Below are positions 3,302-45,448 of a stretch of DNA of 64,000 nucleotides, in pieces. A program made the position numbers and the translations under genes. Numbering within the stretch: the stretch's first letter is position 1; each line of letters opens with the position of its first letter. The notes under the pieces were generated by a model. It saw nothing but the letters and a program-made list of their open reading frames with translations. It was not told where the DNA came from and searched no databases. The stretch lies in assembly GCF_003334305.1 (NCBI RefSeq), contig NZ_QOWS01000001.1; one strand, 5' to 3'. This stretch comes from Escherichia coli. GTDB taxonomy: Bacteria > Pseudomonadota > Gammaproteobacteria > Enterobacterales > Enterobacteriaceae.

Positions 3302-4141
3302 ATGAAAGACAATCCGCTGATTTCAATCTATATGCCGACCTGGAACCGCCAACAACTGGCGATTCGGGCGATAAAATCGGTCCTGCGCCAGGACTACAGC
3401 AACTGGGAGATGATCATCGTGGATGATTGCTCCACCTCCTGGGAACAACTGCAACAGTACGTCACTGCCCTCAACGATCCGCGTATTACCTACATTCACA
3501 ACGACATTAACAGCGGGGCGTGCGCGGTACGTAACCAGGCGATTATGCTGGCGCAAGGGGAATACATTACCGGGATCGATGACGATGATGAATGGACGCC
3601 CAACCGCCTGAGCGTCTTCCTCGCCCATAAACAGCAACTGGTCACTCACGCCTTTTTGTACGCTAACGACTACGTATGCCAGGGAGAAGTTTATTCCCAA
3701 CCAGCAAGCTTACCACTGTATCCCAAATCGCCGTACTCACGCCGCCTGTTCTATAAACGCAATATCATTGGCAATCAGGTTTTTACCTGGGCGTGGCGTT
3801 TCAAAGAGTGCTTGTTCGATACCGAACTGAAAGCAGCACAGGATTACGACATCTTCCTGCGGATGGTGGTGGAGTATGGCGAACCGTGGAAAGTGGAAGA
3901 GGCGACGCAGATCCTGCATATCAATCACGGTGAAATGCAGATCACCTCGTCACCGAAAAAATTCTCCGGGTACTTCCACTTTTACCGCAAGCACAAAGAT
4001 AAATTTGACCGTGCAAGCAAAAAATATCAGCTGTTTACCCTCTACCAGATCCGCAATAAACGTATGACCTGGCGCACTTTGCTGACGCTGCTGTCGGTGC
4101 GTAACGGCAAACGTCTGGCTGATGGTATTCGGGGGCGCTAA
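3302..4141 (+). CDS. wcaA: Colanic acid glycosyltransferase (GT2)
   Basis: 279 aa; GT2 N-terminal SIYMPTWNR...IVDDCS motif; synteny. Confidence 0.93.
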   Translation: MKDNPLISIYMPTWNRQQLAIRAIKSVLRQDYSNWEMIIVDDCSTSWEQLQQYVTALNDPRITYIHNDINSGACAVRNQAIMLAQGEYITGIDDDDEWTPNRLSVFLAHKQQLVTHAFLYANDYVCQGEVYSQPASLPLYPKSPYSRRLFYKRNIIGNQVFTWAWRFKECLFDTELKAAQDYDIFLRMVVEYGEPWKVEEATQILHINHGEMQITSSPKKFSGYFHFYRKHKDKFDRASKKYQLFTLYQIRNKRMTWRTLLTLLSVRNGKRLADGIRGR

Positions 4142-4143
4142 AG

Positions 4144-4632
4144 ATGCTGGAAGATCTGCGTGCCAACAGCTGGAGTTTACGCCCGTGCTGCATGGTTCTT
4201 GCCTATCGTGTTGCTCATTTTTGTTCGGTGTGGCGCAAAAAGAACGTCCTCAACAATCTGTGGGCGGCCCCGCTGCTGGTGCTGTATCGCATTATCACCG
4301 AATGCTTTTTCGGTTATGAAATCCAGGCCGCCGCGACCATTGGCCGCCGCTTTACTATCCATCACGGTTACGCCGTAGTGATCAATAAAAACGTGGTAGC
4401 GGGGGATGATTTCACCATTCGCCACGGCGTCACTATCGGCAATCGTGGTGCCGATAACATGGCATGTCCACACATTGGCAACGGCGTCGAACTCGGTGCC
4501 AACGTCATTATTCTTGGTGATATCACGCTTGGTAACAACGTCACCGTGGGCGCGGGCAGCGTGGTGCTCGACTCTGTCCCGGACAACGCGCTGGTGGTGG
4601 GAGAAAAAGCGCGAGTGAAGGTAATTAAATGA
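4144..4632 (+). CDS. wcaB: Colanic acid O-acetyltransferase (hexapeptide repeat)
   Basis: 162 aa; left-handed beta-helix hexapeptide repeats; synteny. Confidence 0.93.
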   Translation: MLEDLRANSWSLRPCCMVLAYRVAHFCSVWRKKNVLNNLWAAPLLVLYRIITECFFGYEIQAAATIGRRFTIHHGYAVVINKNVVAGDDFTIRHGVTIGNRGADNMACPHIGNGVELGANVIILGDITLGNNVTVGAGSVVLDSVPDNALVVGEKARVKVIK

Positions 4633-5846
4633 ATATTCTGCAATTTAATGTGCGACTGGCGGAAGGCGGGGCGGCAGGTGTGGCGTTAGATCTCCATCAG
4701 CGTGCGCTGCAACAGGGGCTGGCGTCACATTTTGTCTACGGCTACGGCAAAGGCGGCAAAGAGAGCGTCAGCCATCAGAACTATCCGCAGGTCATCAAAC
4801 ATACGCCGCGGATGACCGCGATGGCGAACATTGCGTTGTTTCGTCTGTTTAATCGCGATCTGTTCGGCAATTTCAATGAGTTATATCGCACCATTACTCG
4901 CACCCCGGGGCCGGTGGTTCTGCATTTTCATGTGCTGCACAGCTACTGGCTAAATCTTAAGAGCGTGGTGCGCTTTTGCGAAAAGGTGAAAAACCATAAA
5001 CCGGATGTCACTCTGGTCTGGACGCTGCACGACCACTGGAGCGTTACCGGGCGCTGCGCCTTTACCGACGGTTGTGAAGGCTGGAAAACGGGCTGCCAGA
5101 AATGCCCGACCTTAAATAACTATCCGCCGGTGAAGATTGATCGCGCGCACCAGCTGGTGGCGGGCAAACGCCAGTTATTTCGTGAGATGCTGGCGCTGGG
5201 CTGTCAGTTTATTTCCCCCAGCCAGCATGTGGCTGACGCTTTCAATAGTCTGTACGGGCCAGGGCGTTGCCGGATTATCAATAATGGTATTGATATGGCA
5301 ACCGAAGCGATTCTGGCGGACTTGCCTCCGGTGCGCGAAACCCAGGGCAAGCCGAAAATCGCGGTGGTGGCGCATGACCTGCGTTACGACGGCAAGACTA
5401 ACCAGCAACTGGTGCGTGAGATGATGGCGCTGGGCGACAAAATTGAACTGCATACCTTCGGTAAGTTCTCGCCGTTCACCGCTGGCAACGTGGTTAATCA
5501 CGGCTTTGAAACCGACAAACGTAAGCTGATGAGCGCGCTCAATCAGATGGATGCGCTGGTGTTCAGTTCTCGCGTCGATAACTACCCGCTGATTTTGTGT
5601 GAGGCGCTATCGATTGGCGTGCCGGTGATTGCCACCCATAGCGATGCGGCGCGTGAAGTGCTGCAAAAATCCGGCGGTAAAACCGTCAGTGAAGAAGAGG
5701 TGCTGCAACTGGTGCAGTTAAGCAAACCGGAAATCGCGCAGGCGATATTTGGTACCACGCTGGCTGAGTTCAGCCAACGCAGCCGCGCCGCCTACAGTGG
5801 ACAACAGATGCTGGAGGAGTATGTCAACTTCTATCAGAATCTGTAG
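4629..5846 (+). CDS. wcaC: Colanic acid glycosyltransferase (GT4-like)
   Basis: 405 aa; start overlaps wcaB stop; synteny. Confidence 0.93.
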   Translation: MNILQFNVRLAEGGAAGVALDLHQRALQQGLASHFVYGYGKGGKESVSHQNYPQVIKHTPRMTAMANIALFRLFNRDLFGNFNELYRTITRTPGPVVLHFHVLHSYWLNLKSVVRFCEKVKNHKPDVTLVWTLHDHWSVTGRCAFTDGCEGWKTGCQKCPTLNNYPPVKIDRAHQLVAGKRQLFREMLALGCQFISPSQHVADAFNSLYGPGRCRIINNGIDMATEAILADLPPVRETQGKPKIAVVAHDLRYDGKTNQQLVREMMALGDKIELHTFGKFSPFTAGNVVNHGFETDKRKLMSALNQMDALVFSSRVDNYPLILCEALSIGVPVIATHSDAAREVLQKSGGKTVSEEEVLQLVQLSKPEIAQAIFGTTLAEFSQRSRAAYSGQQMLEEYVNFYQNL

Positions 5847-7038
5847 CTACCTGCTGCTGCCGCTGATCTACCTGCTGGTTAACGTCAAAATCGCCCAGCT
5901 TGGCGAAAGTTTCCCCATCACTATCGTCACTTTTTTACCTGTCTTGTTACTGCTGTTTTTAGAACGCATCAGCGTTAAAAAATTGATGATTGCCTTAGGG
6001 ATTGGTGCGGGACTCACGGCGTTTAACTACCTGTTTGGTCAGTCGCTGGATGCCGGTAAATACGTCACTTCAACCATGCTGTTTGTCTATATTGTGATCA
6101 TTATTGGCATGGTGTGGAGTATTCGTTTTAAAACAATTTCGCCACACAACCATCGCAAGATATTACGTTTCTTTTATCTGGTGGTCGGGCTGGTGGTGGC
6201 GCTGGCGGCGGTGGAGATGGCGCAAATTATCCTCACCGGCGGCAGCAGTATTATGGAGTCGATTTCGAAATATCTGATTTACAGCAACAGCTATGTACTG
6301 AATTTCATTAAATTCGGCGGTAAGCGTACGACAGCACTTTATTTCGAACCGGCATTTTTCGCTCTGGCATTAATCTCAATTTGGCTCAGCATCAAACAGT
6401 TTGGTATCAAAACGCCTAAAACCGATGCTATGATTCTCGCAGGAATAATATTATCCGGATCGTTTTCAGGGGTTATGACCTTTATCCTGTTTTATTTGCT
6501 GGAGTGGGCATTCCAATATCTGAATAAAGAGGCGATTAAGAAAAAGTTGCCGTTAGCATTGATTTCTCTGGCTGTATTCCTGGTTGGTGTGGTAATCGCG
6601 TTTCCTTATATTTCCACCCGTCTGGGCGATTTAGGTACGGAAGGATCGTCATCGTATTATCGTATTGTCGGTCCGCTGGTAATGGTCGGTTATTCTTTGA
6701 CCCATATTGACGGTGTAGTCAGATTTGGCTCACTTTATGAATATGTCGCATCATTCGGAATATTTAACGGTGCGGATGTCGGAAAAACCATAGACAATGG
6801 TTTGTATCTGCTGATTATTTATTTTTCCTGGTTCGCAGTGTTTTTATCGCTGTGGTACATGGGGAAAGTGATAAAAATGATGATCAACGCTTTTGGTGAT
6901 AACCGCAATTTTCGCGTGCAATTATATCTTTTCACTCCGGTATCGCTGTTTTTTACCGGTTCGATATTTAGCCCGGAATATGCATTTTTAATCGTCTGTC
7001 CGTTTATTTTGCGAAAAGCGTTAAATATTACGAGGTAA
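5821..7038 (+). CDS. wcaD: Colanic acid polymerase (Wzy-type, multi-TM)
   Basis: Internal ATG at 5821 of ORF 5749..7038 gives 405 aa; highly hydrophobic multi-span protein; synteny. Confidence 0.9.
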
Positions 7039-7810: not shown

Positions 7811-8359
7811 ATGCAAGATTTAAGCGGTTTCTCGGTGCCGAAAGGGTTCCGGGGCGGCAACGCTATTAAAGTGCAATTATGGTGGGCAGTACAGGCAACA
7901 ATATTTGCCTGGTCGCCACAAGTATTGTATCGCTGGCGGGCTTTTTTATTACGTTTATTCGGCGCAAAAATAGGAAAAAACGTAGTTATTCGTCCGTCAG
8001 TAAAAATTACCTATCCGTGGAAATTAACCTTAGGTGATTACGCGTGGGTCGGCGATGACGTCAATTTATATACCCTCGGTGAAATAACCATTGGCGCACA
8101 TTCGGTGATATCGCAAAAAAGTTATTTATGCACCGGTAGCCACGACCATGCAAGTCAACATTTCACCATTAACGCCACGCCTATTGTGATTGGCGAGAAA
8201 TGCTGGCTGGCAACCGATGTCTTTGTTGCCCCAGGCGTCACAATCGGCGACGGCACCGTCGTGGGTGCACGAAGCAGTGTTTTTAAATCGCTTCCGGCAA
8301 ATGTGGTTTGCCGGGGGAATCCCGCAGTGGTGATACGCGAACGCGTTGAAACTGAATAA
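7811..8359 (+). CDS. wcaF: Colanic acid O-acetyltransferase (hexapeptide repeat)
   Basis: 182 aa; hexapeptide repeats; synteny. Confidence 0.92.
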   Translation: MQDLSGFSVPKGFRGGNAIKVQLWWAVQATIFAWSPQVLYRWRAFLLRLFGAKIGKNVVIRPSVKITYPWKLTLGDYAWVGDDVNLYTLGEITIGAHSVISQKSYLCTGSHDHASQHFTINATPIVIGEKCWLATDVFVAPGVTIGDGTVVGARSSVFKSLPANVVCRGNPAVVIRERVETE

Positions 8360-8384
8360 ATTCAAAAATACAGAGGAATAAGAC

Positions 8385-9506
8385 ATGTCAAAAGTCGCTC
8401 TCATCACCGGTGTAACCGGACAAGACGGTTCTTACCTGGCAGAGTTTCTGCTGGAAAAAGGTTACGAGGTGCATGGTATTAAGCGTCGCGCATCGTCATT
8501 CAACACCGAGCGCGTGGATCACATTTATCAGGATCCGCACACCTGCAACCCGAAATTCCATCTGCATTATGGCGACCTGAGTGATACCTCCAACCTGACG
8601 CGCATTTTGCGTGAAGTACAGCCGGATGAAGTGTACAACCTGGGCGCAATGAGCCACGTTGCGGTTTCTTTTGAGTCACCGGAATATACCGCAGACGTCG
8701 ATGCGATGGGTACGCTGCGCCTGCTCGAGGCGATCCGCTTCCTCGGTCTGGAAAAGAAAACCCGTTTCTATCAGGCTTCCACCTCTGAACTGTACGGTCT
8801 GGTGCAGGAAATTCCGCAGAAAGAAACCACGCCGTTCTACCCGCGATCTCCGTATGCGGTCGCCAAACTGTACGCCTACTGGATCACCGTTAACTACCGC
8901 GAATCCTACGGCATGTACGCTTGTAACGGAATTCTCTTCAACCATGAATCCCCGCGCCGCGGCGAAACCTTCGTTACCCGCAAAATCACCCGCGCAATCG
9001 CCAACATCGCCCAGGGGCTGGAGTCGTGCCTGTACCTCGGCAATATGGATTCCCTGCGTGACTGGGGCCACGCCAAAGACTACGTAAAAATGCAGTGGAT
9101 GATGCTGCAACAGGAACAGCCGGAAGATTTCGTTATCGCGACCGGCGTTCAGTACTCCGTGCGTCAGTTCGTGGAAATGGCAGCGGCACAGCTGGGCATC
9201 AAACTGCGCTTTGAAGGCACGGGTGTTGAAGAGAAGGGCATTGTGGTTTCCGTCACCGGGCATGACGCGCCGGGCGTTAAACCGGGTGATGTGATTATCG
9301 CCGTTGATCCGCGTTACTTCCGTCCGGCTGAAGTTGAAACGCTGCTCGGCGACCCGACCAAAGCGCACGAAAAACTGGGCTGGAAACCGGAAATCACCCT
9401 CAGAGAGATGGTGTCTGAAATGGTGGCTAATGACCTCGAAGCGGCGAAAAAACACTCTCTGCTGAAATCTCACGGCTACGACGTGGCGATCGCGCTGGAG
9501 TCATAA
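8385..9506 (+). CDS. gmd: GDP-mannose 4,6-dehydratase
   Basis: 373 aa; N-terminal [10 protein letters not shown] Rossmann motif; protein recognised. Confidence 0.96.
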
Positions 9507-9508
9507 GC

Positions 9509-10474
9509 ATGAGTAGACAACGCATTTTTATCGCTGGCCATCGCGGAATGGTCGGTTCTGCCATCAGGCGGCAGCTCGAACAGCGCGGTGATGTGGAACT
9601 GGTATTACGCACCCGCGACGAGCTGAACCTGCTGGACAGCCGCGCGGTGCATGATTTCTTTGCCAGCGAACGCATTGACCAGGTCTATCTGGCGGCGGCG
9701 AAAGTGGGCGGCATTGTTGCCAACAACACCTATCCGGCGGATTTCATCTACCAGAACATGATGATTGAGAGCAACATCATTCACGCCGCGCATCAGAACG
9801 ACGTGAACAAACTGCTGTTTCTCGGATCGTCCTGCATCTACCCGAAACTGGCAAAACAGCCGATGGCAGAAAGCGAGCTGTTGCAGGGCACGCTGGAGCC
9901 GACTAACGAGCCTTATGCCATTGCCAAAATCGCCGGGATCAAACTGTGCGAATCTTACAACCGCCAGTATGGACGCGATTACCGCTCGGTCATGCCAACC
10001 AACCTGTACGGGCCACACGACAACTTCCATCCGAGTAACTCGCATGTGATCCCAGCATTGCTGCGTCGCTTCCACGAGGCGACGGCACAGAATGCACCGG
10101 ACGTGGTGGTGTGGGGCAGCGGTACACCGATGCGTGAATTTCTGCACGTCGATGATATGGCGGCGGCAAGCATTCATGTGATGGAGCTGGCGCACGAAGT
10201 CTGGCTGGAAAACACCCAGCCGATGTTGTCGCACATTAACGTCGGTACGGGCGTTGACTGCACTATCCGCGAGCTGGCGCAAACCATCGCCAAAGTGGTG
10301 GGTTACAAAGGTCGGGTGGTTTTTGATGCCAGTAAACCGGATGGTACGCCGCGCAAACTGCTGGATGTGACGCGCCTGCATCAGCTTGGCTGGTATCACG
10401 AAATCTCACTGGAAGCGGGGCTTGCCAGCACTTACCAGTGGTTCCTTGAGAATCAAGACCGCTTTCGGGGGTAA
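9509..10474 (+). CDS. fcl: GDP-L-fucose synthase
   Basis: 321 aa; SDR-type GHRGMVG motif; follows gmd. Confidence 0.96.
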
Positions 10475-23584: not shown

Positions 23585-24478
23585 ATGACGAATTTAAAAG
23601 CAGTTATACCGGTAGCAGGTCTTGGGATGCATATGTTGCCTGCCACTAAGGCGATTCCCAAAGAGATGCTACCGATCGTCGACAAGCCAATGATTCAGTA
23701 CATTGTTGACGAGATTGTGGCTGCAGGGATCAAAGAAATCCTCCTGGTAACTCACGCGTCCAAGAACGCGGTCGAAAACCACTTCGACACCTCTTATGAA
23801 TTAGAATCTCTCCTTGAACAGCGCGTGAAGCGTCAACTGCTGGCGGAAGTGCAGTCGATCTGTCCACCGGGAGTGACCATTATGAACGTGCGTCAGGGCG
23901 AACCTTTAGGTTTGGGCCACTCCATTTTGTGTGCGCGACCTGCCATTGGTGACAACCCATTTGTCGTGGTACTGCCAGACGTAGTGATCGACGACGCCAG
24001 CGCCGACCCGCTGCGCTACAACCTAGCTGCCATGATTGCGCGCTTCAATGAAACGGGACGCAGCCAGGTGCTGGCAAAACGTATGCCGGGTGATCTCTCT
24101 GAATACTCCGTCATTCAGACCAAAGAACCGCTGGATCGCGAAGGTAAAGTCAGCCGCATTGTTGAATTCATCGAAAAACCGGATCAGCCACAAACGCTGG
24201 ACTCAGACATCATGGCCGTTGGTCGCTATGTGCTTTCTGCCGATATTTGGCCGGAACTTGAACGCACTCAACCTGGTGCATGGGGGCGTATTCAACTGAC
24301 TGATGCCATTGCTGAACTGGCGAAAAAACAGTCCGTTGATGCAATGCTGATGACTGGTGAAAGCTACGACTGCGGTAAAAAAATGGGCTATATGCAGGCG
24401 TTTGTGAAGTATGGCTTACGCAACCTGAAAGAAGGGGCGAAGTTCCGTAAAGGGATTGAGAAGCTGTTAAGCGAATAA
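23585..24478 (+). CDS. galF: UTP-glucose-1-phosphate uridylyltransferase paralog
   Basis: 297 aa; protein recognised; conventional upstream boundary of the O-antigen locus. Confidence 0.95.
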
Positions 24479-35701: not shown

Positions 35702-37117
35702 ATGTTACTTCCTGTAATTATGGCTGGTGGTACCGGCAGTCGTCTCTGGCCGATGTCACGCGAGCTTTATCCGAAACAGTTCCTCCGCCTGTTCGGGCAG
35801 AACTCCATGCTGCAGGAAACCATCACCCGACTCTCGGGTCTTGAAATCCATGAACCGATGGTCATCTGTAACGAAGAGCATCGCTTCCTGGTGGCTGAAC
35901 AGCTGCGCCAGCTAAATAAGCTGTCGAATAACATTATACTTGAGCCAGTCGGGCGCAACACCGCGCCGGCCATCGCCCTGGCGGCCCTTCAGGCCACCCG
36001 CTACGGTGACGACCCGCTGATGCTGGTTCTCGCCGCCGACCACATCATCAATAACCAGTCGGCCTTCCACGACGCTATCCGGGTCGCCGAGCAGTATGCT
36101 GATGAAGGTCATCTGGTCACCTTCGGTATCGTGCCGAATGCCCCGGAAACTGGCTACGGTTACATTCAGCGCGGCGTGGCGCTCACCGATAGTGCCCATT
36201 CCGCGTACCAGGTGGCCCGCTTTGTGGAGAAGCCGGATCGCGAGCGCGCCGAGGCTTACCTCGCCTCCGGGGAGTACTACTGGAACAGCGGCATGTTTAT
36301 GTTCCGCGCCAAGAAATACCTCATCGAGCTGGCCAAATACCGTCCGGATATCCTGGAAGCCTGCCAGGCTGCGGTGAATGCCGCCGATAATGGCAGCGAT
36401 TTCATCAATATCCCACATGATATTTTCTGCGAGTGCCCGGATGAGTCCGTGGACTACGCCGTTATGGAGAAAACCGCTGATGCGGTGGTGGTCGGTCTCG
36501 ATGCTGACTGGAGCGACGTTGGCTCCTGGTCCGCACTATGGGAGGTCAGCCCGAAAGACGAGCAGGGCAACGTCCTTAGTGGCGACGCGTGGGTACACAA
36601 CAGCGAAAACTGCTACATCAACAGCGACGAGAAGCTAGTGGCGGCCATTGGCGTAGAGAATCTGGTGATTGTCAGCACTAAGGACGCCGTGCTGGTGATG
36701 AATCGCGAGCGTTCCCAGGACGTGAAGAAGGCGGTCGAGTTCCTCAAGCAGAACCAGCGCAGCGAGTACAAGCGCCACCGTGAGATTTACCGCCCCTGGG
36801 GCCGTTGCGACGTAGTGGTCCAGACCCCGCGCTTCAACGTCAACCGCATCACGGTGAAACCAGGCGGTGCCTTCTCGATGCAGATGCACCACCATCGCGC
36901 CGAGCATTGGGTTATTCTCGCCGGCACCGGTCAGGTGACGGTCAACGGTAAGCAGTTCCTGCTGTCCGAGAACCAGTCCACCTTTATTCCGATTGGCGCC
37001 GAGCACTGCCTGGAAAACCCTGGCTGTATTCCGCTGGAAGTGCTGGAGATCCAGTCGGGGGCGTACCTTGGCGAGGACGACATTATTCGTATTAAAGACC
37101 AGTATGGTCGTTGCTAA
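35702..37117 (+). CDS. manC: Mannose-1-phosphate guanylyltransferase (O-antigen copy)
   Basis: 471 aa; paralogous to cpsB but clearly divergent at DNA level and more GC-rich; [11 protein letters not shown] motif. Confidence 0.93.
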
Positions 37118-37140
37118 TTATTTTCGGGACAAGATGCAGA

Positions 37141-38517
37141 ATGACACAGTTAACTTGTTTTAAGGCTTATGACATCCGTGGTGAACTGGGTGAGGAACTG
37201 AACGAGGACATCGCCTACCGTATCGGTCGCGCCTACGGCGAATTTCTGAAACCCGGGAAGATAGTGGTGGGGGGCGATGTGCGCCTCACAAGCGAGTCGC
37301 TGAAGCTGGCGCTGGCCCGCGGGTTAATGGACGCCGGTACCGACGTGCTGGACATCGGCCTGAGCGGTACCGAAGAGATTTACTTTGCCACCTTCCACCT
37401 TGGGGTAGATGGTGGCATCGAGGTGACCGCGAGCCACAATCCTATGAACTACAACGGCATGAAGCTGGTGCGCGAGAATGCGAAGCCCATCAGCGGCGAC
37501 ACCGGCCTGCGGGATATCCAGCGCCTGGCGGAGGAAAACCAGTTCCCGCCAGTGGACCCGGCGCGTCGCGGGACCCTGAGCAAGATATCGGTACTGAAGG
37601 AGTATGTTGACCATCTGATGAGCTACGTGGACTTCTCGAACTTCACCCGTCCACTGAAGTTGGTGGTGAACTCCGGAAACGGGGCTGCGGGGCACGTGAT
37701 TGATGAGGTGGAGAAACGCTTCGCGGCGGCTGGGGTGCCGGTAACCTTTATCAAGGTGCATCACCAGCCGGATGGCCATTTCCCTAACGGTATCCCGAAT
37801 CCGCTGCTGCCGGAGTGCCGCCAGGATACCGCCGACGCGGTGCGCGAGCATCAGGCAGACATGGGGATTGCCTTTGACGGCGACTTCGATCGCTGCTTCC
37901 TGTTCGATGACGAAGCTTCGTTTATCGAGGGGTATTACATTGTCGGCCTGCTGGCTGAGGCGTTCCTGCAGAAGCAGCCGGGAGCGAAAATCATTCACGA
38001 CCCGCGCTTGACGTGGAACACGGTAGACATCGTGACCCGCAACGGCGGCCAGCCGGTGATGTCGAAGACGGGGCATGCGTTCATCAAGGAGCGGATGCGT
38101 CAGGAAGACGCTATCTACGGCGGGGAGATGAGTGCGCACCATTACTTCCGCGATTTCGCCTACTGCGATAGCGGGATGATCCCGTGGCTGCTGGTGGCGG
38201 AGCTGCTGTGTCTGAAGAACAGCTCGCTGAAATCGCTGGTGGCGGACCGCCAGAGGGCGTTCCCTGCGTCGGGAGAGATCAACCGCAAGCTAAGGAATGC
38301 GGCTGAGGCGATCGCCCGCATCCGGGCGCAGTATGAGCCGGCGGCTGCACACATCGACACAACGGACGGGATCAGTATTGAATACCCTGAATGGCGCTTT
38401 AACCTGCGCACGTCTAACACCGAGCCGGTGGTGCGTCTGAACGTTGAGTCCAGAGCTGATGTGGCGCTTATGAATGAAAAAACGACCGAGCTGTTACACC
38501 TGTTAAGCGGGGAATAA
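37141..38517 (+). CDS. manB: Phosphomannomutase (O-antigen copy)
   Basis: ATG at 37141 ([14 protein letters not shown]) inside ORF 37111..38517, 458 aa; paralogous to cpsG. Confidence 0.93.
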
Positions 38518-38518
38518 G

Positions 38519-39313
38519 GTGAGAGATTTACTAACGACGATTTATCGTTATCGGGGATTTATCTGGAGCAGTGTTAAACGTGATTTTCAGGCGCGCTATC
38601 AAACTAGTATGCTGGGCGCACTATGGCTCGTTTTACAACCGCTCTCTATGATTCTGGTCTATACCCTGGTTTTTTCCGAGGTGATGAAGGCAAGAATGCC
38701 CGATAATACCGGGTCGTTTGCCTATAGTATTTATCTCTGTTCCGGGGTACTGACCTGGGGATTATTTACTGAGATGCTGGATAAAGGTCAGAGCGTATTT
38801 ATTAACAATGCTAATCTGATCAAGAAACTCAGTTTTCCGAAAATCTGTCTGCCGATCATCGTGACGTTATCGGCGGTGCTAAATTTCGCGATTATTTTCA
38901 GTCTGTTTCTAATTTTTATCATTGTCACCGGTAACTTCCCCGGCTGGCTCTTTCTCTCGGTGATACCGGTCCTGCTTTTGCAAATCCTGTTTGCCGGTGG
39001 GCTGGGGATGATCCTTGGTGTCATGAACGTCTTTTTCAGGGATGTGGGGCAACTGGTTGGCGTTGCGCTGCAATTCTGGTTTTGGTTCACACCCATTGTT
39101 TATGTACTGAATTCATTACCTGCATGGGCAAAAAATCTGATGATGTATAACCCGATGACTCGGATCATGCAATCTTATCAGTCCATCTTCGCCTATCATC
39201 TGGCCCCCAACTGGTATTCGCTATGGCCAGTATTGGCTCTCGCCATTATTTTCTGTGTCATCGGTTTCAGGATGTTCCGCAAGCATGCGGCGGATATGGT
39301 GGATGAATTATAA
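38519..39313 (+). CDS. wzm: ABC-2 type O-antigen exporter permease
   Basis: 264 aa, 6 TM segments; GTG start at 38519 with GGGGAATAAGG upstream; directly precedes wzt. Confidence 0.85.
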   Translation: MRDLLTTIYRYRGFIWSSVKRDFQARYQTSMLGALWLVLQPLSMILVYTLVFSEVMKARMPDNTGSFAYSIYLCSGVLTWGLFTEMLDKGQSVFINNANLIKKLSFPKICLPIIVTLSAVLNFAIIFSLFLIFIIVTGNFPGWLFLSVIPVLLLQILFAGGLGMILGVMNVFFRDVGQLVGVALQFWFWFTPIVYVLNSLPAWAKNLMMYNPMTRIMQSYQSIFAYHLAPNWYSLWPVLALAIIFCVIGFRMFRKHAADMVDEL

Positions 39314-40527
39314 TGAGTTATATCAGAGTAAATAATGTCGGTAAGGCGTATCGCCAGTATCACTCAAAGACCGGGAGACTGATCGAATGGTTATCCCCTC
39401 TGAATACCAAACGCCATAACTTGAAATGGATCCTCCGCGAGATTAATTTCGAAGTCGCTCCGGGCGAGGCTGTCGGTATTATCGGTATCAACGGTGCAGG
39501 CAAGAGTACCCTGCTTAAACTCATAACCGGGACGTCCAGGCCGACGACTGGAGAAATTGAAATCTCCGGACGTGTCGCTGCATTACTCGAATTGGGGATG
39601 GGGTTTCATTCTGATTTCACTGGCCGGCAGAATGTTTATATGTCTGGGCAACTGTTGGGGTTATCGTCAGAGAAAATAACTGAACTGATGCCGCAAATTG
39701 AAGAGTTTGCTGAGATTGGGGACTATATCGATCAGCCTGTGCGCGTCTACTCCAGTGGGATGCAAGTTCGATTAGCTTTTAGTGTAGCGACGGCTATCCG
39801 TCCTGATGTGCTAATTATCGATGAGGCATTATCTGTTGGGGATGCATATTTCCAGCATAAAAGCTTTGAGCGTATTCGAAAATTTCGTCAGGAAGGGACC
39901 ACGCTGTTGCTGGTATCCCATGATAAACAAGCGATCCAAAGCATTTGCGACCGGGCCATTTTATTGAATAAAGGCCAAATTGAAATGGAAGGTGAACCTG
40001 AAGCAGTGATGGATTATTACAATGCGCTTCTGGCCGATAAACAAAATCAGTCCATTAAACAAGTTGAGCATAATGGTAAAACGCAAACTGTTTCAGGCAC
40101 TGGTGAGGTGACTATCTCTGAGGTTCATCTTCTCGATGAACAGGGCAATGTGACTGAATTTGTTTCGGTAGGGCATCGTGTCAGCTTGCAGGTCAACGTT
40201 GAGGTCAAGGACGATATTCCTGAGCTTGTTGTCGGATATATGATTAAGGATCGACTTGGACAGCCGATTTTCGGGACCAATACGTACCATCTCAATCAGA
40301 CACTCACCTCCCTGAAAAAAGGAGAAAAGCGTTCGTTCTTATTTTCTTTCGATGCGAGATTGGGGGTTGGCTCCTATTCTGTCGCTGTCGCGTTGCATAC
40401 TTCCAGTACGCACCTCGGCAAAAACTATGAATGGCGCGATCTGGCCGTGGTATTCAACGTCGTTAACACGGAACAACAAGAGTTTGTCGGCGTGTCCTGG
40501 TTGCCGCCTGAACTGGAGATTTCTTAA
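39313..40527 (+). CDS. wzt: O-antigen ABC exporter ATP-binding protein with C-terminal extension
   Basis: 404 aa; Walker A GINGAGKST, signature YSSGMQVRLAF, Walker B LIIDEA; about 150 aa beyond the nucleotide-binding domain. Confidence 0.88.
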   Translation: MSYIRVNNVGKAYRQYHSKTGRLIEWLSPLNTKRHNLKWILREINFEVAPGEAVGIIGINGAGKSTLLKLITGTSRPTTGEIEISGRVAALLELGMGFHSDFTGRQNVYMSGQLLGLSSEKITELMPQIEEFAEIGDYIDQPVRVYSSGMQVRLAFSVATAIRPDVLIIDEALSVGDAYFQHKSFERIRKFRQEGTTLLLVSHDKQAIQSICDRAILLNKGQIEMEGEPEAVMDYYNALLADKQNQSIKQVEHNGKTQTVSGTGEVTISEVHLLDEQGNVTEFVSVGHRVSLQVNVEVKDDIPELVVGYMIKDRLGQPIFGTNTYHLNQTLTSLKKGEKRSFLFSFDARLGVGSYSVAVALHTSSTHLGKNYEWRDLAVVFNVVNTEQQEFVGVSWLPPELEIS

Positions 40528-41804
40528 TGGGTTCGTCGTTTTATCGTTCATTTGAAGAACGACACAGAGGTTCGGTTGAAGAAATCAAGCGCCGCTTGAG
40601 TTTTTATTTACCTTTTCTTGCAGGTCTGAAGGACATTTATCCTGATGGCGTGATTGCGGATATTGGTTGCGGACGTGGCGAATGGTTGGAGATCCTGACT
40701 GAAAATGGCATTGCGAACATCGGCGTCGATCTCGATGATGGCATGCTGGCGCGCGCCAGGGAGGCCGGACTGAATGTGCAGAAAATGGATTGTCTGCAGT
40801 TTCTGCAAAGTCAGGCGGATCAGAGCCTGATAGCGTTGACCGGTTTTCATATTGCTGAGCATTTGCCTTTTGAGGTCCTGCAGCAGCTCGTCATGCATAC
40901 CCTACGGGTGCTGAAACCAGGTGGTTTGCTGATCCTCGAAACGCCGAACCCGGAGAATGTAAACGTCGGCACCTGTTCATTTTATATGGATCCAACGCAT
41001 AATCATCCTCTGCCACCGCCACTGCTTGAGTTTTTACCTATTCATTATGGTTTTAACAGAGCAATTACCGTTCGTCTGCAGGAAAAAGAGGTTCTTCAAT
41101 CTCCGGATGCAGCCGTTAATTTGGTCGATGTACTCAAAGGGGTGAGCCCCGACTACAGCATCATTGCTCAGAAAGCAGCGCCAACAGATATTCTTGAACG
41201 CTTTGACACCCTGTTTACCCAGCAGTATGGTCTGACGCTGGATGCTCTGAGCAACCGTTACGATGCGATTTTGCGCCAACAGTTTTCGTCCGTTGTCTCA
41301 CGGCTGGAGACGTTGAACCAAACCTATATGCAACAGATAAGCCAAATGTCAGAGACTATTCAGACTTTGCAAGGTGAGGTTGACGATCTGAGTCATGTCA
41401 TCGATCAGAACCATCAGCTTCATCAGCAAATGGCGGATTTACATAACAGTCGTTCATGGCGTATTACTCAACCACTACGCTGGTTGTCTTTGCAACGTCA
41501 ATTATTACGTCAGGAAGGGGCTAAAGTGCGAGCCCGTAGGGCTGCGAAAAAAATATTGCGCAAAGGGATGGCGCTCTCGCTGGTCTTTTTCCATCGTTAC
41601 CCTAAGTCTAAGGTTTATCTGTTTAAGGTTCTGAGAAAAACTGGCTGCTATACATTGCTACAACGTTTGTTCCAACGCGTAATGCTGGTGCAATCTGACA
41701 CGATGATGATGCAGTCCAGAAGATATGATGTGGGTACTGAAGAAATGACAAGTCGCGCGATGAGTATTTATAACGAATTAAAAAATAAAAATACGGAGAA
41801 ATAA
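40527..41804 (+). CDS. wbdD: Chain-terminating SAM-dependent methyltransferase (methyltransferase-only WbdD type)
   Basis: 425 aa; methyltransferase motif DIGCGRGEWL; C-terminal coiled-coil-like region; no kinase motifs seen. Confidence 0.7.
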   Translation: MGSSFYRSFEERHRGSVEEIKRRLSFYLPFLAGLKDIYPDGVIADIGCGRGEWLEILTENGIANIGVDLDDGMLARAREAGLNVQKMDCLQFLQSQADQSLIALTGFHIAEHLPFEVLQQLVMHTLRVLKPGGLLILETPNPENVNVGTCSFYMDPTHNHPLPPPLLEFLPIHYGFNRAITVRLQEKEVLQSPDAAVNLVDVLKGVSPDYSIIAQKAAPTDILERFDTLFTQQYGLTLDALSNRYDAILRQQFSSVVSRLETLNQTYMQQISQMSETIQTLQGEVDDLSHVIDQNHQLHQQMADLHNSRSWRITQPLRWLSLQRQLLRQEGAKVRARRAAKKILRKGMALSLVFFHRYPKSKVYLFKVLRKTGCYTLLQRLFQRVMLVQSDTMMMQSRRYDVGTEEMTSRAMSIYNELKNKNTEK

Positions 41805-41806
41805 CG

Positions 41807-44800
41807 ATGCGTATTGTCATAGATTTACAAGGCGCACAGACGGAAAGCCGCTTTCGTGGCATCGGTCGTTATAGTATCGCAATCGCCAGAGGCATAATCA
41901 GAAATAACAGCCGGCATGAGATTTTCATCGCGCTATCCGCCATGCTGGATGAGTCGATTGCGGATATTAAGGCGCAATTTGCCGATCTCCTGCCGGCAGA
42001 AAATATAGTCGTATGGCATGCCGTAGGCCCTGTTCGTGCGATGGACCAAGGTAATGAATGGCGTCGGGAGAGCGCAGAACTGATTCGGGAAGCGTTTCTT
42101 GAATCATTGTGTCCAGATGTCGTTTTCATTACGAGCTTGTTTGAAGGTCATGTCGACGATGCGGCTACATCGGTACACAAATTTAGTCGTCAGTATAAAG
42201 TAGCCGTACTGCACCACGATCTTATCCCCCTCGTGCAGGCGGAAACCTATCTGCAGGACGATGTATACAAACCCTACTACTTACAGAAAGTTGAGTGGTT
42301 AAAAAACGCTGACCTTTTGTTGACTAACTCTGCTTATACCGCACAGGAAGCGATCGAGCATCTGCATTTACAGGGCGATCATGTGCAGAATATTGCAGCC
42401 GCAGTCGATTCTCAGTTTTGTATGGCGGAGGTGACAGCGAGCGAAAAAGAGACCGTCCTTGGCCATTACGGTATTCAGCGCGAGTTCATGTTGTATGCGC
42501 CCGGAGGATTTGACTCAAGGAAAAACTTTAAACGGTTGATTGAGGCCTATGCCGGGCTCAGTGATGCCTTACGTCGCAGTCATCAACTGGTTATCGTCAG
42601 TAAGCTTTCCATCGGTGATCGTCAGTATCTGGAATCCCTTGCGTCAGGTAATGGTTTACAGCAAGGCGAACTGGTACTCACTGGTTATGTGCCGGAAGAT
42701 GAGCTGATCCAGCTCTATCGCCTATGTAAGCTGTTCATCTTTGCTTCACTACATGAAGGTTTTGGGTTGCCGGTTCTGGAAGCAATGTCGTGCGGTGCGC
42801 CGGTGATTGGCTCAAATGTCACCAGTATTCCTGAAGTCATCGGTAATCCTGAGGCATTATTCGACCCGTATTCTGTCTCTTCCATGAGGGATAAGATCGC
42901 GCAATGTTTGACTGATGATACCTTCCTCGCGCGTCTGAAAGAAATGGCGCAGCAGCAAGCGCGTAATTTCTCTTGGGATAAAGCTGCGGTGACTGCTCTG
43001 GAGGCTTTCGAAAAGATCGCGGTAGAAGACACCGGTACTGCGCAGGTTTTGCCTGAAGCTTTGATTCAGAAGATCCTTGCTATCACACAAGGGCAGCCAG
43101 ATGACCGCGATCTGCGCTTGTGCGCAACGGCCATTGATTACAATCTGAAAACGGCAGAACTTTATCAAATCGACGATAAATCGCTGAACTGGCGTGTGGA
43201 AGGCCCATTCGATAGCTCATATAGTCTGGCGTTGGTCAACCGCGAATTTGCCCGGGCACTCTCAGCCGATGGTGTAGAGGTCTTATTGCATTCCACTGAA
43301 GGACCGGGTGATTTTGCCCCAGATGCCTCCTTTATGGCACAGTCGGAAAATAGTGATCTTCTGGCATTTTATAATCAATGTCAGACCCGCAAGAGTAACG
43401 AAAAGATAGATATTCTTAGCAGAAATATCTATCCACCGCGGGTTACCAAAATGGATGCCAAAGTAAAATTCCTTCATTGTTATGCTTGGGAAGAAACGGG
43501 CTTTCCGCAACCGTGGATCAATGAATTTAATCGGGAACTTGACGGAGTGCTGTGTACTTCGGAACATGTTCGTAAAATATTGATTGATAACGGACTGAAT
43601 GTGCCCGCATTTGTTGTTGGCAATGGCTGTGACCATTGGCTCAATATCCCAGCCGAGACGACAAAAGATGTGGATCACGGAACATTCCGTTTCCTGCACG
43701 TCTCTTCTTGTTTCCCACGCAAAGGGATACAGGCAATGCTTCAGGCTTGGGGGAAGGCGTTCACTCGTCGTGACAATGTTATCTTAATCATTAAGACTTT
43801 TAACAATCCGCACAATGAAATTGACGCATGGCTGGCTCAGGCCCAGGCTCAATTCATAGACTATCCCAAAGTTGAAGTGATCAAAGAGGATATATCAGCC
43901 ACCGAGCTTAAAGGGCTTTATGAAAGCTGTGATGTTTTGGTTGCTCCAGGTTGCGCTGAAGGCTTTGGTTTACCTATTGCTGAAGCAATGCTGAGTGGGC
44001 TACCGGCTATCGTCACCAATTGGAGCGGGCAACTTGATTTTGTTAATTCACAAAATTCATGGCTGGTTGACTATCAGTTCACTCGGGTAAAAACGCACTT
44101 TGGTCTGTTTTCCTCAGCCTGGGCCAGTGTGGATATTGACAACTTAACAGATGCATTAAAAGCGGCAGCCTCAACCGATAAATCAGTGCTGCGTGACATG
44201 GCCAATGCTGGTCGCGAGCTTCTTCTGCAGCAGTTTACCTGGAAAGCGGTGGCTGATCGTTCTTGCCAGGCGGTCAAGACTCTGCGTGCGCATATTGATA
44301 TTGCACAGCATCGGGCGCGCATTGGCTGGTTGACGACCTGGAACACGAAATGTGGGATCGCAACCTATTCCCAGCATCTGGTGGAAAGCGCACCTCATGG
44401 CGCGGATGTTGTTTTTGCTCCCCAGGTCAGCGCTGGCGATCTTGTGTGTGCAGACGAAGAGTTTGTACTTCGCAACTGGATTGTAGGTAAAGAGAGCAAC
44501 TATCTGGAAAACCTCCAGCCACACATTGATGCTCTGAAACTCGATGTCATTGTGATCCAATTCAACTATGGATTCTTTAATCATCGAGAACTGTCGGTGT
44601 TTATTCGTCGCCAGCATGACGCCGGTCGTTCAGTTGTTATGACGATGCACTCAACTGTGGATCCGCTGGAAAAAGAGCCGAGCTGGAATTTCCGTCTTGC
44701 TGAAATGAAAGAGGCGCTGGCACTTTGCGACCGGTTGTTGGTGCATTCGATTGCCGATATGAACCGCCTTAAAGATTTAGGCTTAACTGCGAATGTTGCT

Positions 44801-45448
44801 TTATTCCCGCACGGTGTTATCAACTACTCCGCAGCGAGCGTCACACGTCAACAGCAGTCTTTACCGCTAATTGCGAGCTATGGCTTCTGCTTACCGCATA
44901 AGGGCCTGATGGAACTAGTAGAATCCGTCCATAGACTCAAGCAAGCCGGTAAACCGGTTCGTTTACGACTGGTGAACGCAGAGTATCCTGTTGGGGAGTC
45001 ACGCGATCTGGTGGCAGAGCTTAAAGCTGCTGCTCAGCGGTTAGGTGTTACCGATCTGATTGAGATGCATAATGATTTCCTACCTGATGCGGAGAGTCTG
45101 CGGTTGCTTTCAGAAGCCGATCTTCTGATTTTTGCTTATCAGAATACTGGGGAGTCTGCTAGCGGGGCGGTACGTTATGGTATGGCGACTCAAAAACCTG
45201 TTGCGGTAACGCCCCTGGCGATATTTGATGATTTGGACGATGCCGTCTTTAAATTTGATGGATGCAGCGTCGATGATATCAGTCAGGGGATTGACCGGAT
45301 CCTGAATTCCATCCGTGAACAGAACTCTTGGGCAACCAGGACTCAACAACGTGCCGATGCATGGCGGGAACAACATGATTATCAAGCTGTTTCACGCCGT
45401 CTGGTTAATATGTGTCAAGGCTTAGCTAAAGCTAAATATTTTAAATAA
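41807..45448 (+). CDS. wbdA: Multidomain polymerising mannosyltransferase (GT4 modules)
   Basis: 1213 aa; GT4 signatures EGFGLPVLEAMSCGAPV (about residue 320) and EGFGLPIAEAMLSGLPAI (about residue 725), plus a third C-terminal GT-like region. Confidence 0.75.
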   Translation: MRIVIDLQGAQTESRFRGIGRYSIAIARGIIRNNSRHEIFIALSAMLDESIADIKAQFADLLPAENIVVWHAVGPVRAMDQGNEWRRESAELIREAFLESLCPDVVFITSLFEGHVDDAATSVHKFSRQYKVAVLHHDLIPLVQAETYLQDDVYKPYYLQKVEWLKNADLLLTNSAYTAQEAIEHLHLQGDHVQNIAAAVDSQFCMAEVTASEKETVLGHYGIQREFMLYAPGGFDSRKNFKRLIEAYAGLSDALRRSHQLVIVSKLSIGDRQYLESLASGNGLQQGELVLTGYVPEDELIQLYRLCKLFIFASLHEGFGLPVLEAMSCGAPVIGSNVTSIPEVIGNPEALFDPYSVSSMRDKIAQCLTDDTFLARLKEMAQQQARNFSWDKAAVTALEAFEKIAVEDTGTAQVLPEALIQKILAITQGQPDDRDLRLCATAIDYNLKTAELYQIDDKSLNWRVEGPFDSSYSLALVNREFARALSADGVEVLLHSTEGPGDFAPDASFMAQSENSDLLAFYNQCQTRKSNEKIDILSRNIYPPRVTKMDAKVKFLHCYAWEETGFPQPWINEFNRELDGVLCTSEHVRKILIDNGLNVPAFVVGNGCDHWLNIPAETTKDVDHGTFRFLHVSSCFPRKGIQAMLQAWGKAFTRRDNVILIIKTFNNPHNEIDAWLAQAQAQFIDYPKVEVIKEDISATELKGLYESCDVLVAPGCAEGFGLPIAEAMLSGLPAIVTNWSGQLDFVNSQNSWLVDYQFTRVKTHFGLFSSAWASVDIDNLTDALKAAASTDKSVLRDMANAGRELLLQQFTWKAVADRSCQAVKTLRAHIDIAQHRARIGWLTTWNTKCGIATYSQHLVESAPHGADVVFAPQVSAGDLVCADEEFVLRNWIVGKESNYLENLQPHIDALKLDVIVIQFNYGFFNHRELSVFIRRQHDAGRSVVMTMHSTVDPLEKEPSWNFRLAEMKEALALCDRLLVHSIADMNRLKDLGLTANVALFPHGVINYSAASVTRQQQSLPLIASYGFCLPHKGLMELVESVHRLKQAGKPVRLRLVNAEYPVGESRDLVAELKAAAQRLGVTDLIEMHNDFLPDAESLRLLSEADLLIFAYQNTGESASGAVRYGMATQKPVAVTPLAIFDDLDDAVFKFDGCSVDDISQGIDRILNSIREQNSWATRTQQRADAWREQHDYQAVSRRLVNMCQGLAKAKYFK

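Follow-up and report, generated by a model that had tools for sequence, protein, structure and literature searches.

The window, a 64,000-nucleotide stretch of Escherichia coli contig NZ_QOWS01000001.1, carries a polymannan O-antigen cluster in the canonical order manCB-wzm-wzt-wbdD-wbdA-wbdB-wbdC, which adjoins the his operon and is encoded on the plus strand. The first gene, manC (35702..37117), is a 471-aa ORF for the GDP-mannose pyrophosphorylase/mannose-6-P isomerase that supplies the polymannan precursor; its product is 98% identical to that of E. coli HS, and the RefSeq annotation of the syntenic gene in strain IAI1 agrees. The phosphomannomutase gene manB/rfbK (37141..38517) lies in an ORF spanning 37111-38517, residues 11-468 of which are 98% identical to HS RfbK, whose start is MTQLT; its RefSeq name is ‘O9 family phosphomannomutase RfbK’. 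The permease subunit of the O8 O-antigen ABC exporter, an ABC-2 type permease, is encoded by wzm (38519..39313; 264-aa ORF), which adjoins wzt such that the TAA stop of wzm and the ATG of wzt overlap by 1 nt (TAATG). Wzm is 64% identical to O9 Wzm, carries the RefSeq name ‘O8 family ... permease subunit’ and matches the NCBIfam Wzm and KpsM permeases weakly, under the curated cut-offs. Genes with ABC2_membrane domains also lie upstream in all homologous loci. On the other side, the ATG of wbdD (40527..41804) overlaps the wzt stop in the same way (TAATG), placing the gene for the capping enzyme in the same cluster as wzt. This O8-type WbdD is a chain-terminating methyltransferase of 425 aa in which Pfam detects SAM-methyltransferase domains only, at 39-142, and no kinase domain. 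The polymerising mannosyltransferase WbdA (41807..45448; 1213 aa), described in the literature as the serogroup-defining enzyme with three glycosyltransferase (GT) modules, is only ~30% identical to O9 WbdA (840 aa). The cluster ends with wbdB (45512..46657), encoding the adaptor mannosyltransferase (96% identical to HS WbdB and annotated as such in RefSeq), and wbdC (46667..47782), encoding the first mannosyltransferase, which acts on Und-PP-GlcNAc (assigned from the ORF and the RefSeq annotation of the syntenic gene).

The ORF at 39313..40527 on the plus strand has 404 codons, from an ATG at 39313 to a TAA at 40525-40527, and faces many stops on the opposite strand. It is the wzt gene from the polymannan O-antigen cluster of E. 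coli O8 (= Klebsiella pneumoniae O5) and encodes the 404-aa ATP-binding subunit of the exporter. The nucleotide sequence is 100% identical to that of IAI1 and other O8 strains, the protein is the same as RefSeq WP_000120464.1 (‘O8 family O-antigen export ABC transporter ATP-binding subunit’), and K. pneumoniae (O5) Wzt proteins are 97-98% identical to it; we found no difference of substance between the window Wzt and the known E. coli O8 and K. pneumoniae O5 proteins. In IAI1 (O8), the cluster has the same order and sits between gnd/ugd/wzz and his, but only 32491-52527 of the window matches that genome (at 99.2%), and the upstream galF-gnd region differs. No NCBIfam model matched Wzt, Wzm or WbdD at the curated cut-off, so the RefSeq ‘O8 family’ names presumably come from elsewhere than these HMMs. 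Among 5,426 complete E. coli genomes, wzt is present in 302; wbdD, at a coverage of at least 80%, is also present in 302, as is the segment encoding the C-terminal domain of O8 Wzt. A further 25 genomes match only nt 269-1215 of wzt and were suspected to be recombinants able to separate the two Wzt domains; in CRE1493, the only one inspected, wzt is cut short by IS1 and carries a pseudogene annotation.

The N-terminal nucleotide-binding domain (NBD) of Wzt comprises residues 1-241 (39313..40035, plus strand), as delimited by motif scan, Pfam and model secondary structure. As expected from the preliminary description, which placed the Walker A, signature and Walker B motifs within about the first 250 residues, all motifs fall at 58-204, and all five characteristic of an ABC NBD are present: Walker A GINGAGKS (58-65), Q-loop LLELG (91-95), signature YSSGM (146-150), Walker B VLIIDE (166-171) and H-loop SHD (202-204). 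Pfam places ABC_tran at residues 41-173, and PDB entries 6AMX/6M96 match the NBD only (E~1e-68). The NBD closes with a ‘hinge’ helix at residues 229-241 of the AlphaFold model. It is followed by an inter-domain linker at residues 242-258 (40036..40086, plus strand), the lowest-confidence stretch of the full-length model (pLDDT 63 for residues 241-250 and 70 for residues 251-260) and little conserved among relatives; beyond the linker the model is beta-strand throughout. Because the NBD ends with the hinge helix, the extension amounts to ~163 aa including the linker, with a folded domain of ~146 aa, in line with the ‘~150-aa’ extension proposed earlier. Full-length Wzt, predicted like its C-terminal domain as a monomer only, has a pLDDT of 86.4. 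Its best PDB fold match is 8DKU_A, the O-antigen-bound Aquifex aeolicus WzmWzt (TM 0.86/0.88), and by sequence it aligns over its full length with 8DKU/7K2T, structures of A. aeolicus Wzt (E~1e-96).

The folded C-terminal domain (residues 259-404; 40087..40524, plus strand) is a beta-sandwich carbohydrate-binding domain (CBD), delimited by Pfam, PDB sequence matches and the model. Pfam assigns Wzt_C (PF14524), fused behind the NBD, at residues 259-397 (E=1.5e-38; model positions 3-143 of 143), and the extension as a whole is far beyond chance. Modelled alone, the domain is ordered and all-beta (pLDDT 91.5), as the preliminary description had anticipated, and superimposes as a beta-sandwich/jelly-roll on solved Wzt CBDs. 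In PDB sequence searches, 8DKY/6O14 scored E~1e-23, whereas 2R5O reached only E=0.07. The top 17 Foldseek PDB matches of the CBD alone are all Wzt CBDs, from A. aeolicus, O9a (2R5O) and O12 (5HNO), with TM scores of 0.62-0.77 normalised to the query, and the first of them is 8DKY with 3-O-methyl-mannose (3-O-Me-Man) bound. The Pfam match, these fold matches and the pocket residues shared with Aquifex support the earlier proposal that the extension is a cap-recognising carbohydrate-binding module; neither disorder, a fold other than a beta-sandwich nor a lack of similarity to Wzt carbohydrate-binding domains, the outcomes that would have spoken against it, was observed.

Many ABC ATPases bear beta-rich regulatory domains at their C-terminus, and the extension could in principle be a generic domain for regulation or dimerisation, like those on importer ATPases (MalK, CysA), with no role in glycan binding. 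MalK-type chains do appear in the full-length fold search, but at rmsd >10 Å and 16-17% identity. Pfam assigns Wzt_C rather than TOBE or a MalK domain; the CBD-only fold search returned the 17 Wzt CBDs first and then lipid-binding sandwiches of the RhoGDI and NPC2 types, with no MalK regulatory domain among the 50 matches listed; and the ligand-contact residues are conserved. Pfam, pocket conservation and the fold search effectively refute a generic regulatory domain, and we give it almost no weight. Free-standing natural CBDs were also considered: a CBD-only homology search gave only proteins of ≤284 aa with Wzt_C alone, but this search evidently favours proteins near the query length, so the idea was rejected. 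One of these proteins, encoded on a 531-kb contig, stems from a wzt split by a frameshift, next to a wzm that is split too.

Since no solved structure of the O8 CBD was found in PDB searches, its cap-binding mode is predicted here by homology to the Aquifex CBD, at 38% identity. The A. aeolicus CBD binds 3-O-methyl-D-mannose, but not mannose, and has been crystallised with it, and its 3-O-methyl cap has been likened to the E. coli O8 cap (Spellmon et al. 2022, PMC9445017). We mapped the residues named for that crystal structure column by column onto the alignment, which yields a predicted pocket spanning 40237..40488 (plus strand) and formed by Y309, M310, R314, N323, A358, A360, H362, H367, W374 and V392. 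Of the eight cap-contacting residues, six are identical in O8 (N313->N323, H350->H362, H355->H367, W362->W374, V380->V392 and A348->A360) and two are conservative replacements (L300->M310 and T346->A358), the threonine being one of two contact positions counted as different from Aquifex. Across 38 O8-like family members, the N, H, H, W, A and R of the pocket are kept in 37-38, and loop positions around them vary. The valine of the FVGV motif, predicted to act in trans in a CBD homodimer with exchanged C-terminal strands, is V (25) or I (10) in 35/38 sequences, flanked by invariant F391 and G393. In the model, the pocket residues lie on four strands (302-312, 318-323, 353-362 and 371-384) that, counted in order, correspond to strands 3, 4, 6 and 7 of the Aquifex ligand-binding sheet. 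The trap loop (residues 363-368, including H367) differs between the two proteins, reading KGMDHA in Aquifex and TSSTHL in O8. The hinge tyrosine Tyr233 of Aquifex, which contacts the second and third sugars, is likewise not kept: the O8 column holds Asn237, which is Asn in 38/38 O8-like sequences, and an invariant Tyr236 lies one residue upstream (Y235-Y236 in O8). This replacement affects a secondary contact and not the cap pocket.

The 38% identity, the loss of Y233 from the hinge helix and the missing O8 structure in PDB searches leave room for a different arrangement, in which the O8 CBD binds the cap elsewhere, for example at the site mapped for O9a, with the conserved residues needed instead for folding or for docking to the NBD. 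We consider this very unlikely: 6/6 cap-contacting or pocket-lining side chains are identical or conservative and near-invariant in the family while the surrounding loops vary, and the conserved residues sit on the strands matching Aquifex ligand-binding strands 3, 4, 6 and 7. An Aquifex-like pocket remains the favoured model of the O8 site.

Comparison of O8 Wzt with its relatives indicates what the CBD follows. Between O8 and O9 Wzt, identity is 64-65% for the NBD and only 21-23% for the CBD, whereas O8 and Aquifex Wzt share 49% in the NBD and 38% in the CBD. O9 is thus nearer in the NBD but farther in the CBD than Aquifex, and the CBD therefore tracks cap chemistry. At the nucleotide level, the segments of O8 and O9 wzt that encode the NBD match each other in blastn, but those for the CBD do not. 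The A. aeolicus protein (7K2T, 8DKU; CBD 6O14, 8DKY) shares the two-domain architecture of O8 Wzt, at 42% identity over 397 aligned columns, its cap ligand 3-O-methyl-D-mannose and the pocket N, H, H, W, V, A and R; the polymers differ, that of Aquifex being a rhamnose-rich rhamnose/mannose heteropolymer and that of O8 a pure mannan. The CBD of O9a/K. pneumoniae O3 (2R5O) shares the O8 fold (TM 0.73), also follows a homologous NBD and belongs, as in O8, to a polymannan system with WbdD-dependent termination, but it is 27 residues longer than the O8 CBD and does not keep the methyl-pocket residues. In O9 Wzt only the Asn of the pocket is kept (H->S, H->P, W->gap, V->W, A->G, R->L). The partner enzymes differ accordingly: O9 WbdD combines methyltransferase and kinase domains and in O9a makes a methyl-phosphate cap, whereas O8 WbdD has no kinase. 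With 23% identity to 2R5O, E=0.07 and a kinase-less WbdD, the O8 CBD falls outside the methyl-phosphate-cap subtype. The O12 Wzt CBD (5HNO/5HNP) is a beta-sandwich like that of O8 (TM 0.72-0.77; 12-15% identity) with the same cap-recognition logic, but it recognises terminal Kdo instead of a methyl group. For the cap site of O8/K. pneumoniae O5, the Aquifex 3-O-methyl-mannose complex, not the O9a structure, offers the nearest structural template. The alignment with O8 and O9a domains suggested in the preliminary description gives 23% CBD identity for O9a and is trivial for O8 (100% identical), because the protein encoded here is itself O8 Wzt. Its proposal that the CBD co-varies with WbdD cap chemistry is borne out by the O8/O9 contrast between NBD (64-65%) and CBD (23%), the WbdD domains and the pocket residues.

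Gene neighbourhoods beyond E. coli bear on whether the cap or the polymer is read. The CBD might instead recognise mainly the O8 repeat-unit backbone, that is, its linkage pattern, in which case its sequence would track the WbdA polymer and not WbdD chemistry. Within E. coli, the O8 CBD, wbdD and wbdA are inherited together, so co-occurrence there cannot separate the two readings, and the Aquifex complex shows additional protein contacts to the second and third sugars, via H355, V380 and Y233 (PMC9445017). However, conservation falls on the residues that make up the methyl pocket and bind the capping sugar, and isolated 3-O-Me-Man monosaccharide binds the Aquifex CBD when mannose does not. In six loci inspected, the O8-type CBD always adjoins a methyltransferase-only WbdD and the O9 type a kinase-methyltransferase. 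Four distant relatives encode a methyltransferase of ~400-460 aa directly downstream of wzm-wzt: Acidovorax ebreus, a genome with a Serratia proteamaculans-type protein and two metagenome contigs, one of them Stutzerimonas-type. The polymerases beside this CBD type (58-60% identity) are quite different, namely a 1260-aa multi-GT4 protein in the Stutzerimonas-type contig, a 616-aa GT2/GT4 protein in Acidovorax and a 968-aa protein in a metagenome, and yet the methyltransferase neighbour is constant. Moreover, the nearest relative of solved structure is the Aquifex CBD, even though the Aquifex polymer is a heteropolymer rich in rhamnose. Backbone recognition is therefore highly improbable in our view, and wzt reports the cap, not the repeat unit. 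On cap recognition, we regard it as somewhat probable that the O8-type CBD, Wzm and a methyltransferase-only terminator form a conserved export module, found in Gamma- and Betaproteobacteria with CBDs 58-60% identical and with a pocket intact as far as Aquifex, in which similarity follows cap chemistry and not ATPase phylogeny.

Taken with the gene identity, domain boundaries, fold, residue conservation and gene linkage observed here, a scheme in which O8 Wzt is an ABC ATPase with a cap-binding beta-sandwich CBD that couples chain termination to export is very probably correct; its binding mode and coupling steps draw on Aquifex homology and on published O8/O9a work. WbdD would methylate O3 of the terminal mannose, at which point WbdA polymerisation would stop. 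The CBD (259-404) would then bind the 3-O-methyl-mannose cap in a pocket on one face of a beta-sheet, where N323 is predicted to contact the ring oxygen, H362 to contact O2 and W374 to stack on the methyl group. A358, A360 and M310 would line the methyl pocket, H367 would contribute from the trap loop and V392 may be supplied by the partner subunit. Residues 1-241 would act as the ABC ATPase powering the Wzm channel, such that only capped, finished chains would be passed to the transporter and termination would be coupled to export. According to the literature, a terminal modification is needed for recognition by the carbohydrate-binding module and the transporters are serotype-specific. Citations report capped-glycan binding by the CBD, and its requirement for export, for O8/O9a and O12, and Cuthbertson et al. 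2005 (J Biol Chem 280:30310) identify, in their title, the C-terminal domain of Wzt as the determinant of substrate specificity in O8 and O9a.

The role of the CBD in O8 substrate specificity has thus been known since 2005, and the observation made at this locus is correct but ordinary. Its earlier presentation as a ‘second, independent’ serotype marker does not hold: wzt is in established use as a standard target for in-silico O-typing, and it both adjoins wbdD and is functionally coupled to it. The discriminating part of wzt is the CBD-coding 3' third, which, unlike the NBD part, shows no O9 cross-hybridisation at blastn sensitivity. With its C-terminal domain, O8 Wzt is a textbook example of glycan chain termination coupled to ABC export, and N323, H362, H367, W374 and V392 are nominated for mutagenesis or inhibitor design. 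If the conserved export module is real, 3-O-methyl capping would be an ancient, horizontally shared ‘export password’, and the transporters of E. coli O8 and K. pneumoniae O5, which are of clinical relevance, could be modelled directly on the Aquifex ligand complex.

The wzt gene is a 404-codon open reading frame on the + strand (39313-40527 in the ORF listing of the window); its translation begins with MSYIRVNNVGKAY, and the opposite strand is full of stops. By megablast it is present in 302 of 5,426 complete E. coli genomes, is 100% identical in IAI1 (O8) and several further strains, and is annotated at all matches as ‘wzt: O8 family O-antigen export ABC transporter ATP-binding subunit’. The surrounding genes form the canonical O8 rfb cluster, flanked by gnd-ugd-wzz and the his operon: manC (35702-37117), manB (37141-38517), wzm (38519-39313), wzt, wbdD (40527-41804), wbdA (41807-45448), wbdB (45512-46657) and wbdC (46667-47782). 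One-base TAATG overlaps at both the wzm/wzt and wzt/wbdD junctions suggest that permease, ATPase and terminator may be translationally coupled. Klebsiella pneumoniae Wzt proteins are 97-98% identical to O8 Wzt, which fits the published finding that E. coli O8 and K. pneumoniae O5 share the same antigen and locus. GC content steps from ~58-59% in manC-manB (35702-38517) to 46-50% in wzm-wzt-wbdD-wbdA (38519-45448), and between O8 and O9 clusters manCB is 98% identical but wzm, wzt, wbdD and wbdA differ strongly; both observations fit a putative mosaic origin, with precursor-supply genes in common and the serotype-specific block exchanged. The window does not represent strain IAI1: its alignment to the IAI1 locus is limited to 32491-52527 (99.2% identity), identity in gnd is 95.7%, and the two galF-gnd clusters are unrelated. 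This pattern indicates recombination breakpoints around gnd.

A motif scan placed every ABC motif of Wzt within the first ~205 residues: Walker A (GINGAGKS, 58-65), Q-loop (LLELG, 91-95), signature (YSSGM, 146-150), Walker B (VLIIDE, 166-171) and H-loop (SHD, 202-204). Pfam assigns ABC_tran to residues 41-173 and Wzt_C (PF14524) to 259-397 (E=1.5e-38, nearly the whole 143-position model). These positions and limits put the end of the nucleotide-binding domain (NBD) near residue 241; it is followed by a short linker and then a separate domain of the last ~146 residues, so that the extra C-terminal domain proposed in the preliminary description is real. An AlphaFold2 model of full-length Wzt, built with a 40-sequence alignment (mean pLDDT 86.4), has a typical alpha/beta NBD whose last helix spans 229-241; beyond a lower-confidence linker, the rest is beta-strand only. 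In the PDB the model is closest to 8DKU chain A (TM 0.86/0.88, 42% identity, 397 columns), the Aquifex aeolicus WzmWzt transporter with native O antigen bound. Residues 245-404 modelled alone are ordered and all-beta (pLDDT 91.5, pTM 0.87), and Foldseek ranks 1-17 against the PDB are all Wzt carbohydrate-binding domains (CBDs), bearing out the predicted beta-sandwich and its kinship. They include the A. aeolicus full-length transporter (8DKU, 8DL0, 7K2T, 8DNE), the A. aeolicus CBD with 3-O-methyl-D-mannose bound (8DKY) or apo (6O14), the E. coli O9a CBD (2R5O; TM 0.73, 21% identity) and the Kdo-cap-binding O12 domain (5HNO/5HNP; TM 0.72-0.77, 12-15% identity); unrelated RhoGDI- and NPC2-type sandwiches rank below. 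The Pfam assignment and the fold search together exclude a MalK-like regulatory domain as the identity of the extension. A CBD-only protein search also returned many short proteins with Wzt_C alone. The single case checked for a free-standing CBD was rejected as a frameshift artefact: on the long metagenome contig ERZ25039527:contig_8173 (locus 3780-5705), wzm is in two pieces, and the ABC_tran and Wzt_C parts of wzt lie on separate ORFs.

Four lines of comparison support the expectation that this domain co-varies with WbdD cap chemistry. First, identity between Wzt of O8 and of O9 is 64-65% in the NBD versus 23% in the C-terminal domain. In ‘distant’ mode blastn, the NBD-coding segment cross-matches 231 genomes at 60-80% identity (the matches listed carry O9-family annotation, plus one O99-family gene and one for an unnamed ABC ATPase), and the CBD-coding segment matches the 302 O8 genomes and nothing else. 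Second, identity to the O8 NBD is 64% for O9 versus 49% for Aquifex, and identity to the O8 CBD is 38% for Aquifex versus 23% for O9; in these sequence comparisons, CBD similarity follows the cap rather than ATPase ancestry. Third, O8 WbdD (425 aa) has a SAM-methyltransferase (39-142) as its sole domain and O9 WbdD (708 aa) has methyltransferase and Pkinase/APH-type kinase domains, matching the published methyl and methyl-phosphate caps. Fourth, the relatives whose CBD is 58-61% identical come from four loci: two on metagenome contigs (one of them encoding a Stutzerimonas stutzeri-group protein), one in Acidovorax ebreus and one in a genome assembly with a Serratia proteamaculans-type protein. 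In each, wzm-wzt is directly followed by a 396-460-aa methyltransferase without kinase, even though the polymerases downstream vary in both size and GT family. Within E. coli, O8 wbdD is found at a coverage of at least 80% in 302 genomes, the same count as for the O8 CBD segment, and the two are adjacent in all matches listed.

The nearest solved relative of the O8 CBD by sequence is the Aquifex domain (E~1e-23), compared with E=0.07 (16.6 bits) for the E. coli O9a domain. Aquifex caps its O antigen with 3-O-methyl-mannose or -rhamnose, analogous to the E. coli O8 cap, and the isolated Aquifex CBD binds 3-O-methyl-D-mannose (Kd ~234 uM) and not mannose (Spellmon et al. 2022, PMC9445017). There, Asn313 contacts the ring oxygen, His350 O2 and the Ile299 backbone O4; Leu300, Thr346, Ala348 and Trp362 form the methyl pocket; residues 352-356, including His355, form a trap loop; Val380 is contributed by the partner protomer; and Tyr233 lies on the NBD hinge helix (PMC9445017). 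In the Aquifex sequence reassembled from the PDB alignment, all named residues fell at these numbers, and they were mapped through the 40-sequence alignment to O8 and to O9 (strain HS). Asn313 corresponds to N323 in O8 and N348 in O9, His350 to H362 and Ser, His355 to H367 and Pro, Trp362 to W374 and a gap, Val380 to V392 and Trp, Ala348 to A360 and Gly, Arg304 to R314 and Leu, Leu300 to M310 and L335, and Thr346 to A358 and S385. Among the 38 O8-like sequences, N323, H367, W374 and R314 are invariant, H362 and A360 are each present in 37, and position 392 is V or I in 35; O9 Wzt keeps only the Asn of the cap-contacting side chains. One clear difference from Aquifex is that Tyr233 aligns with Asn237, invariant in the O8 family and adjacent to an invariant Tyr236. 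Because the pocket residues are kept in the O8 family, the O8 domain very probably uses an Aquifex-type 3-O-methyl pocket, given also its 38% identity to the Aquifex CBD. Binding at another site of this fold is unlikely in view of this conservation pattern. Recognition of the glycan backbone is likewise disfavoured, since the conserved residues surround the capping sugar and the polymerases beside O8-type CBDs vary.

In the published model for capped systems, WbdCBA assembles polymannan on undecaprenyl-PP-GlcNAc. Elongation ends when WbdD caps the non-reducing terminus, and the Wzt carbohydrate-binding module binds the cap so that only capped chains are exported; the CBD is described as essential and able to act in trans. 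In the nucleotide-free Aquifex transporter, the CBD dimer and one NBD hold the cap between them, and ATP binding releases it (PMC9445017). The O8 exporter would, by analogy, hold and release its cap in the same way.

The suggestion that the domain offers a second, independent serotype marker does not hold: wzt is already in routine use, and it is tied to wbdD by a one-base overlap and functional coupling. K. pneumoniae O-typing is built on Wzm/Wzt, with transporter specificity as the stated reason. Moreover, wzt reports the cap and not the repeat unit: only 3% separates two Wzt proteins of the O9 family, O9 and O9a are distinguished by a point change in WbdA, and O8-type CBDs occur beside different polymerases in other organisms. 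Of the 302 E. coli genomes, 25 match over <80% of wzt, and all five such matches listed start at nt 269. One of them, CRE1493 (NZ_CP019071.1, locus 8295-9946), has wzt truncated by IS1 at nt 269 (retaining the part corresponding to 39581-40527), lacks wzm and manCB, carries a Klebsiella-like rfbBADC-ugd block upstream and keeps wbdD-wbdA-wbdB-wbdC. Strains with truncated wzt would score as O8-positive by a CBD-targeted marker, yet are predicted not to export O8 through this transporter.

The window also holds a second, intact-looking O-antigen-type cluster of the Wzx/Wzy kind (24786-30498, +) between galF (23585-24478) and gnd (30617-32023), annotated in identical genomes as O46/O134-family wzx and wzy, two GT2 glycosyltransferases, an ATP-grasp amidoligase and a beta-1,6-GlcNAc transferase. 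Its coverage reaches at least 80% in only 17 complete genomes; among these, TUM1887 and A7 have a 100% identical O8 CBD segment or wbdD as well. The genome in hand would therefore yield two in-silico O-type calls; the galF-gnd cluster may be a K-antigen locus of the kind described in O8/O9 strains. O8- and O9-family wzm-wzt also occur on plasmid-labelled records (2-4 matches; NZ_CP104682.1, 210 kb, and NZ_CP022158.1, 47.9 kb), which could be rfb cluster mobilization or an assembly or labelling artefact. In the O9-family cluster of strain XH989 (NZ_CP102679.1, locus 4228-5895), ltrA, which encodes a group II intron reverse transcriptase/maturase, is inserted between manB (rfbK) and wzm.

The O8 Wzt C-terminal domain is already known; it belongs to a prototype system studied experimentally since 2004-2005. 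The residues of the O8 pocket can now be named explicitly, the discriminating segment of wzt is its CBD-coding third, and the Aquifex 3-O-methyl-mannose complex, rather than the O9a structure, is the template of choice for O8 and K. pneumoniae O5.
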